From a virus, in IMG/VR virus record IMGVR_UViG_3300001528_000116, positions 1 through 54,576 of that record: DNA of 54,576 nt; one strand, 5' to 3'. Of the stretch, positions 46,542 to 47,333 are shown piece by piece (positions within the stretch are counted from its first letter, which is position 1; each line of letters starts with the position of its first letter). A model generated the notes under the pieces. The model made no database searches and was not told where the DNA came from. It saw nothing but the letters and a program-made list of their open reading frames with translations. The position numbers were made by a program, and so were the translations under genes.

Positions 46542-47333
46542 TTATTTGGATTTTCGGATTCGGAAGCAGATGGGCGCCGCGATCCAGGCATCGGTAGTAG
46601 AGATGTGGCTATACCCGTCGTGGTCGACAATCGCGAAATAAGTAGAATTGCCAGCATACGCGGAAAGCAACCACCAGCCATTAGGCTTACCATCTTCAAC
46701 CGTACATCTGATTCTGTTTCTCCAATCCTTGTAAAAATCAAGCTGCTCATACACGCCCTTATCTCCAAGCCAATCATTGTCGTTAAATTCTTCCTCGCTG
46801 AATACCTCGGAGGCAGACGGCGCAAAGATCATAGCCTGAACTTCTACAAGCTCTCCGTTGCCATCTTTTTTATACTTACGCTTTGTAGGAATAATGGCGT
46901 TTTTCAGAGAAGTAGGCAGGAGGGACTTGTAAAGAGTATCGTACCACTTCTGCATATCAGTATGCGCCATGGTTTTAAGCAGCTCTTTCATTTCCAGACG
47001 GTATCCGGTTTCGTCAATATCCGTAACCTCAAAAACAACTCTTTGCCCGTCTGTCAACTCACATGGTATTACATCGCCAATGTTGAGCGTGAGAACCCCA
47101 TCCTTAATGTCCTGCATAATGTCGTCTATGGATCCAGCAATGTATCTTTTTATATTCGATACATTAACTCTGGTCTTTGTAGCTTCACAAGTGCAGCCAC
47201 AGTCCTGTATTGCATGAACGGCAGTAGCCGCCTCCATAAATGCGTTTCTGGAGTCCTCAAATGCCTGAGAAGGCTCTCCGTTGTAAGAAAATATGTTACC
47301 ATTAACCATCATATCAATTTTCATTATTGCCAA
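46542..47333 (-). CDS. DGR target protein 2 (non-structural location, no signal peptide)
   Basis: 263 aa. The C-terminus NGWWLLSAYAGNSTYFAIVDHDGYSHISTTDAWIAAPICFRIRKSK is encoded by VR2. RBS AGGAGG. Confidence 0.8.
   Translation of the reverse strand: MAIMKIDMMVNGNIFSYNGEPSQAFEDSRNAFMEAATAVHAIQDCGCTCEATKTRVNVSNIKRYIAGSIDDIMQDIKDGVLTLNIGDVIPCELTDGQRVVFEVTDIDETGYRLEMKELLKTMAHTDMQKWYDTLYKSLLPTSLKNAIIPTKRKYKKDGNGELVEVQAMIFAPSASEVFSEEEFNDNDWLGDKGVYEQLDFYKDWRNRIRCTVEDGKPNGWWLLSAYAGNSTYFAIVDHDGYSHISTTDAWIAAPICFRIRKSK
46562..46679 (-). repeat. DGR variable repeat VR2
   Basis: Aligns with the TR. About 14 substitutions all fall at TR coding-sense adenines. One 3-nt deletion removes the TGC codon. 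The IMH-like end is identical to VR1. Confidence 0.85.

Follow-up and report, generated by a model that had tools for sequence, protein, structure and literature searches.

A remote second target of a diversity-generating retroelement in a temperate phage genome, and a probable template-slippage gap in its variable repeat

The retroelement, its repeats and its remote target gene

The DNA analysed here, hereafter the window, is the whole of IMG/VR virus record IMGVR_UViG_3300001528_000116 (54,576 nucleotides), a circular phage contig whose first 75 nt are identical to its last 75 nt; it is the genome of a circular temperate gut phage with a single diversity-generating retroelement (DGR). All components of the DGR lie on the minus strand, in the order tail-fibre target 1 with its variable repeat (VR1), avd, template repeat (TR), RT-2 RNA and reverse transcriptase (RT), and the cassette is canonical in having one adjacent target, joined here by a second target 7.6 kb away. 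The gene for this second protein, target 2, ends in a variable repeat of its own (VR2), and an earlier note, made from the letters of the window alone, had singled it out as a second, remote DGR target. The features concerned are as follows, with the 3' end of VR2 given as the initiation of mutagenic homing (IMH) site and avd as a single open reading frame (ORF) in two parts.

52754-54001, minus strand: DGR reverse transcriptase (Pfam RVT_1, E=6e-16; 47% identity to the DGR RT of the Roseburia phage Shimadzu)
53990-54269, minus strand: RT-2 RNA motif, filling the spacer between TR and RT (Rfam RF03077, 106.7 bits; gathering score 40)
54304-54424, minus strand: TR, 121 nt, with 33 adenines and two AAC-AAC-AAC runs
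54467-54501, minus strand: 3' end of avd, between VR1 and TR
1-427, minus strand: 5' part of avd, a 153-aa ORF running over the circular junction to 54467
479-1369, minus strand: gene of target 1, a 296-aa tail-fibre-tip DUF6273 protein (Pfam)
487-607, minus strand: VR1, full length, at the target 1 gene's 3' end, with 16 mismatches to the TR, all at TR adenines
445-462, minus strand: hairpin after VR1, identical to the VR2 hairpin (DNA fold)
46542-47324, minus strand: gene of target 2, a 260-aa stand-alone DUF6273 protein (Pfam DUF6273, E=1e-9)
46562-46679, minus strand: VR2, 118 nt, at the target 2 gene's 3' end, with 15 mismatches to the 121-nt TR and a 3-nt gap
46562-46580, minus strand: IMH-like 3' end of VR2 (GCGGCGCCCATCTGCTTCC), from comparison with the repeats of relatives
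46521-46538, minus strand: hairpin after VR2, 7-bp GC stem and 4-nt loop, 23 nt past VR2 (DNA fold)
47335-47340, minus strand: AGGAGG ribosome-binding site of target 2, 10 nt before the ATG at 47324

When the flagged region is compared with the window by BLAST, a repeat of about 120 nt appears three times, each time on the minus strand. All 15 mismatches between VR2 and the TR fall at TR adenines when the gap is placed at a TGC codon, as discussed below, and they take in an AA to GG change at the 5' edge and an A to C change at the boundary of the IMH and its TR counterpart, IMH*; the earlier note was thus right about the adenine-only pattern, but its count of about 14 was one short. Both VRs of the window terminate in GGATCGCGGCGCCCATCTGCTTCC-GAATC and the TR in CTGATTCC-ATGAATG, and the same distinction between IMH (CTGCTTCC-GAATC in the VRs) and IMH* is consistent in all genomes compared, the C of the CTGC within the IMH being invariant in all VRs and replaced by A in all TRs. 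A hairpin of sequence CCGCCAG-CTTG-CTGGCGG, with a minimum-energy fold of -8 to -9 kcal/mol, lies 23-24 nt downstream of each VR, whereas folding of the region downstream of the TR yields no such GC hairpin. The shared IMH-like end and hairpin, both recognized previously in the note, match exactly between the two VRs. Together, the repeat anatomy, the adenine-only mismatches, the IMH and the hairpin identify VR2 as a genuine second, non-adjacent target of the single DGR of the window, as had been proposed. It had also been placed about 8 kb from the TR across the circular junction; the target is indeed remote, but the 7.6 kb lie within the window and the junction is not crossed, as VR1 and avd are the only parts that lie across the 75-nt terminal overlap from the TR.

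The remaining parts of the cassette are readily assigned by homology. The TR lies upstream of the RT gene at a distance of about 300 nt, and we observe that this spacer is filled exactly by the Rfam RT-2 motif, which ties an orphan motif to DGR RNA. Because a Pfam search with the avd ORF gave no match, its identity depends on its position and on homology to the annotated Shimadzu Avd (33% identity, E=5e-13). In the Shimadzu tail fibre, orf22, the C-terminal 270 aa match target 1 at 41% identity.

Translation of target 2 likely begins with the ATG at 47324 rather than a TTG at 47333, and the AGGAGG that the earlier note had pointed out is indeed the gene's own; the upstream 91-aa gene ends in a TAG that overlaps this site. 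No hydrophobic segment is seen at the N-terminus (the maximum Kyte-Doolittle mean over 19 residues is 0.85), which agrees with the previous report that the protein has no signal peptide. Both targets exceed the Pfam cut-off of 23.5 bits for DUF6273 (PF19789), with target 2 scoring 38.9 and target 1 27.6, and they share 40% identity across their C-terminal 133 residues. Twenty-five homologues of target 2 were found, the closest of 261 aa, and the Shimadzu protein orf43 is 29% identical (E=2e-26); PHROGs contains no family matching either target 2 or its 91-aa upstream neighbour, and no N-terminal fibre domain was found in target 2. An AlphaFold2 model has a mean predicted local distance difference test (pLDDT) score of 72, confidence being good in the core (residues 61-215) and low in the VR, and in a Foldseek search it matches DUF6273 phage proteins in BFVD (E down to 3e-16). 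We propose that the product is a free-standing DUF6273 ligand-binding domain, reportedly C-type-lectin-like, and a paralogue of the tail-fibre tip; the lectin fold stays a candidate, since neither Foldseek against the PDB nor a profile search of PDB sequences gave anything usable.

VR2 as a target in current use

Repeats of related phages were located by scanning three public metagenome and genome collections with an 18-mer from the adenine-free 5' block of the repeat, with the many unrelated chance matches removed by BLAST; protein homologues and cluster members of target 2 were gathered as well, and the comparison covered 10 VR2 alleles as nucleotide sequences and 46 as proteins. The window TR has two private states, TCTACT and CCCATCTG, at sites where the TRs of four of four relatives (L002, L003, L045 and L055) have G. 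Both VRs of the window carry these private states while the VRs of the relatives carry G. This concerted pattern is explained only by copying from the present TR, and VR2 was therefore homed after the TR mutations arose.

All 46 sampled orthologous VR2 alleles differ, and in two clusters formed at 90% identity each of the 25 full-length members has a distinct VR peptide; the columns with at least three residue states in these clusters fall almost only at TR-adenine codons. One allele, P0001, matches target 2 of the window exactly except in its VR, which is full length and altogether different. The TR, VR1 (in the tail fibre) and VR2 (in orf43) of Shimadzu were also located and verified in its genome sequence, and both of its VRs are known to be diversified, by read analysis and in mouse-passaged isolates (bioRxiv 10.1101/575076). 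In view of the private TR states, the hypervariable orthologues, the intact IMH and hairpin and the diversified Shimadzu homologue, VR2 is most probably a live target in current use; we put the probability of this explanation as a whole, including the slippage described below, at roughly 0.85.

Origin of the three-nucleotide gap

The 118-nt VR2 and the 121-nt TR are unequal in length. A scan of gap placements shows that loss of TGC alone gives zero non-adenine mismatches; removal of one unit of the adjacent AAC-AAC-AAC run accounts equally well for the length and needs one T to A change (TGC to AGC). The missing cysteine codon (TGC), as the earlier note read it, is thus the best reading of the gap, with other placements possible. 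The TRs of the relatives are all full length and contain the TGC, 10 of 10 complete VR1 copies are full length, and nearly all VR2 copies in relatives are full length with the TGC retained. Conservation of the gap among related phages had been suggested as a check, and among the compared alleles it is private to the window genome. Length variation of VR2 as such is found in three of the 46 sampled protein alleles and in one more at the nucleotide level:

window: -3
L071/P0045: -3, within the first AAC run
L072/P0052: net -1, shifting the frame, found on four contigs
L035: +1

The four indels all lie at TR positions of about 53-80, inside or beside the two AAC-AAC-AAC runs. In the frameshifted alleles (L072 at 1001-1837, P0052; and L035) the conserved C-terminal WIAAPVCFRI is replaced, such that the small target apparently can be lost, at least transiently.

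Differences of this kind have been described before. TR and VR differ in length in about 7% of DGRs, more than half of the differences being multiples of three; 74% of the indels adjoin AAC, the indel is often present in just one of two targets, and template slippage by the RT has been proposed as the cause (Wu et al. 2018, PMC5758913). Since unequal length is a documented exception, it does not exclude VR2 from the DGR targets. The claim that simple cDNA replacement could not produce the gap was too strong, given these slippage indels, and the suggestion of an indel-tolerant process, offered alongside it, is essentially right, although such a process was already documented in the same study.

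The sequence of events that we envisage begins with reverse transcription of the TR RNA with misincorporation opposite adenines, after which the cDNA would replace the last ~40 codons of the target 2 gene at a site recognized through its IMH end and the downstream GC hairpin. Most likely the gap arose during copying of the TR, by slippage of the RT in or beside the adjacent AAC-AAC-AAC run. A cDNA shortened in this way could presumably still be integrated, as homology is required of its ends alone (the adenine-free 5' block on one side, the IMH on the other), and the next homing event would restore a full-length VR2. The gap is most likely, then, a recent and transient by-product allele of RT slippage.

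Other origins for the gap have to be considered. The codon may have been lost after homing, by a replication or repair deletion in the VR2 DNA, perhaps selected for a shorter loop and with no role for the RT; a single consensus sequence cannot tell the two routes apart, and the loss is in frame and leaves the protein intact. No direct repeat flanks the gap in the present VR2 (TAT|AGC), however, whereas the TR RNA has AAC-AAC-AAC at that place, and the clustering of four independent VR2 indels at the AAC-rich stretch, in keeping with PMC5758913, further argues that a later deletion is unlikely. Still less probable is an artefact of assembly or consensus, in which the variants of a mixed VR2 population were merged into one chimeric path; this, too, accounts less well for the clustering at AAC. 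Hypervariable regions are hard for metagenome assemblers and the exact protein is recorded from this contig alone, but the gap is in frame, all flanking mismatches obey the adenine rule, and comparable indel alleles occur in independent assemblies, that of P0052 on four contigs.

The earlier note also allowed that VR2 might be a fossil, or was last homed from an older and shorter TR. The length mismatch between TR and VR2 is itself the point in favor of such a history, which we nonetheless regard as very improbable: VR2 holds the states private to the present TR, the relatives' TRs are full length in four of four cases and their VR2s likewise apart from three indel alleles, the IMH and hairpin are intact, and the orthologues vary almost exclusively at adenine codons. 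A VR2 invariant among relatives was to be the mark of a dead target, and the compared alleles, as described above, are all different. Slippage during homing to a live target is thus the reading that we retain.

Genomic setting of target 2

On the minus strand the tail genes are followed by target 1, avd, TR and RT, then by three small genes, the endolysin, a terminator and a promoter, and finally by an eight-gene operon of which target 2 is the last member. The features of this region, together with the integrase beyond it, are:

52637-51608, minus strand: three small genes, probably holins as judged by position
51603-50800, minus strand: endolysin (library match)
50734-50774, minus strand: strong intrinsic terminator with a 19-bp stem, closing the tail-DGR-lysis unit
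50422-50450, minus strand: predicted promoter driving the accessory operon (TTGACA-17-TATAAT, a perfect match to the consensus)
46542-50399, minus strand: accessory operon of eight co-directional genes, including DUF4406, YopX and DarG-like macrodomain genes, with target 2 last
47696-48145, minus strand: stand-alone macrodomain protein (DarG antitoxin macrodomain, PADLOC E=1.2e-12; PHROG 335)
44869-46479, plus strand: serine integrase (Pfam), convergent with target 2

Relatives share the promoter sequence, among them one whose target 2 is only 63% identical. The operon is thus separated from the tail genes by a terminator and has its own promoter, which bears out the earlier placement of target 2 outside the virion genes insofar as it is not a tail-module gene. 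Its assignment to the early or lysogeny region holds in part: the gene is near the integrase and the operon includes early-type genes (YopX and DUF4406), but this is an accessory operon located after the lysis cassette. The macrodomain protein, encoded two genes upstream of target 2, is the sole PADLOC match and a candidate for counter-defence against DarT-type ADP-ribosylation.

Homology to relatives in prophage form breaks at 46388-46392, inside the 3' end of the integrase gene, and the attP crossover is accordingly placed, from these alignments, at about 46392, within the last ~90 nt of the gene. Because the crossover lies inside the gene, integration would change the C-terminus of the integrase, and target 2 would be the terminal gene of the prophage, ~150 nt from the junction. 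Beyond attP, the relatives L001, L002, L003 and L035 run into a tRNA-like flank; L054 has a different integration site.

In L069, L070, L074 and L075, whose homologues range down to 34-50% identity, a post-lysis accessory operon likewise ends with the small DUF6273 gene, and this arrangement is conserved in a family of Lachnospiraceae phages. L073 probably has the same layout, with host genes beyond; this more distant relative has two small DUF6273 genes after lysis (1960-2622 and 4900-5709), the second being the last phage gene. Two further contigs show rearrangements around the operon. In L010/L004 (IMGVR_UViG_3300045988_052419), the equivalent of window position 12842 is joined directly to that of 47760, such that the tail, DGR and lysis genes are missing and a diversified VR2 is still present; either a deletion or a chimeric assembly would account for this contig. 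In L053, an Agathobacter metagenome-assembled genome, the 451-aa ORF P0015 joins a DUF4406 region to a target 2 homologue that keeps its C-terminal two-thirds, including the VR; this fusion probably results from a deletion in a prophage undergoing decay.

An intergenic element of ~250 nt is present in three minus-strand copies (50470-50740, 28340-28610 and 21005-21260; 77% mean column identity), situated upstream of the accessory operon, upstream of a set of endonuclease, helicase and regulator genes, and between terminase and portal. The motif TGTTACA/TGTAACA has 40 matches in the window, compared with 6.9 expected, and 27 of these are within the three copies. The element matches no Rfam family and may be a regulator-binding array; as a clue to the timing of operon expression it was set aside, as the copies precede functionally different gene sets. 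A separate Rfam match, to the GP20-a cis-regulatory RNA motif (17591-17683, minus strand, 72.1 bits), lies in the head-gene region.

Relationship to known systems

A megablast search of positions 44000-54576 against the INPHARED phages gave no match, and the closest described system, that of the cultured phage Shimadzu (LR596903.1; Cornuault et al., ISME J 2020), was found by protein-level search, with RT, Avd, target 1 and target 2 at 47%, 33%, 41% and 29% identity to their counterparts in the window. Both phages have one TR and two VRs, with the second target far from the cassette and outside the structural genes; the VR2 of Shimadzu orf43 likewise has its own IMH and downstream hairpin, and an attP inside the 3' end of the integrase gene is reported for that phage as well. 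The differences are that Shimadzu is a myovirus whose orf43 belongs to the replication module, at a distance of 13.5 kb from the TR, with a VR2 free of indels, whereas target 2 of the window closes a post-lysis operon beside attP and has an extra N-terminal region of ~60 aa.

Nonadjacent second targets are common in DGRs inside prophages (PMC5758913), and two DUF6273 targets served by one gut-phage DGR are known from the tentaclin phages nd4/nd12 (PMC10743442), from Toutatisvirus (bioRxiv 10.1101/2024.10.15.618418) and from the Faecalibacterium phages Lelie and CP11 (PMC11792537). All of these resemble the window in that the VR is at the C-terminal end of the domain and the small target is a single globular domain, and in Toutatisvirus one target is remote, at 17.5 kb. 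As the other target, those phages have an Ig-domain 'tentaclin' or a Hoc-like protein and the window has a tail-fibre tip, a comparison made from the published descriptions only.

For the gap, the nearest parallels are the in-frame 3-nt indels beside AAC repeats reported in one of two targets of a DGR, with the other target canonical (Wu et al. 2018, PMC5758913). Those in-frame indels are mostly found in non-phage DGRs related to Lineage 4, whereas the DGR of the window is phage-borne and its gap, judged by the related genomes, would be a transient allele rather than a fixed difference between TR and VR. With the Mtd system of Bordetella phage BPP-1 the window shares adenine-specific mutagenic retrohoming, a VR at the C-terminus of a domain that is reportedly lectin-like, the distinction between IMH and IMH*, a GC hairpin following the VR, and Avd; BPP-1 differs in having a single, adjacent target on the tail fibre, and target 2 has no detectable sequence or Foldseek similarity to Mtd.

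What target 2 might do

The conserved position of target 2 outside the tail module and its lack of an attachment domain incline us, by a narrow preference, to see it as a soluble binder rather than a tail component; the missing signal peptide is uninformative here, because tail fibres, including target 1, are also without one. The competing view, in which target 2 belongs to the virion, for instance as an accessory protein for receptor binding or decoration that is encoded outside the tail module and diversified for adsorption as is Mtd, is somewhat less probable and has points in its favor: its DUF6273 domain and that of the tail-fibre target have 40% identity over 133 aa, one of the structural matches in BFVD bears the name 'Receptor Binding Protein', and receptor-binding roles have been proposed for related two-target phages (bioRxiv 10.1101/2024.10.15.618418, PMC10743442). 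Yet the gene is outside the tail module in every lineage examined (post-lysis in L069, L070, L074, L075 and probably L073), and in the window it is encoded in a separate operon with no PHROG match or tail-attachment domain. The Shimadzu homologue, orf43, sits in the replication module and is a bare domain without an attachment region, and frameshifted alleles of the small target persist. A resemblance of VR1 to VR2 within genomes would suggest a common ligand, and there is no such signal, the likeness being 0.31 within and 0.29 between genomes (n=4).

A more specific version of the soluble-binder view, that the stand-alone DUF6273 target is a non-virion, hypervariable binder from an accessory operon of counter-defence type in which a DarG-like macrodomain is encoded as well, we consider speculative and on balance improbable. 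Such a soluble binder might act within infected cells or lysogens, for instance on variable proteins of host defence or of superinfecting phages. The cytoplasmic binder for host takeover or anti-defence that the earlier note had put forward is likewise speculative.

Discussion

Each element of this system is known already: a remote second target, two DUF6273 targets, a diversified homologue in Shimadzu, and indels beside AAC. The window is a well-resolved case of one phage DGR serving two targets, in which private mutations of the TR, copied into both VRs, provide a natural demonstration that the remote target is in use, and in which indel alleles at AAC runs appear as transient by-products. 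The small DUF6273 gene is a conserved prophage-terminal gene in these phages and its homologue in Shimadzu is experimentally diversified, and the role of its product would tell whether phages use DGRs for more than host recognition. If target 2 is indeed a non-virion, intracellular binder, it would represent a phage DGR that diversifies something besides adsorption.
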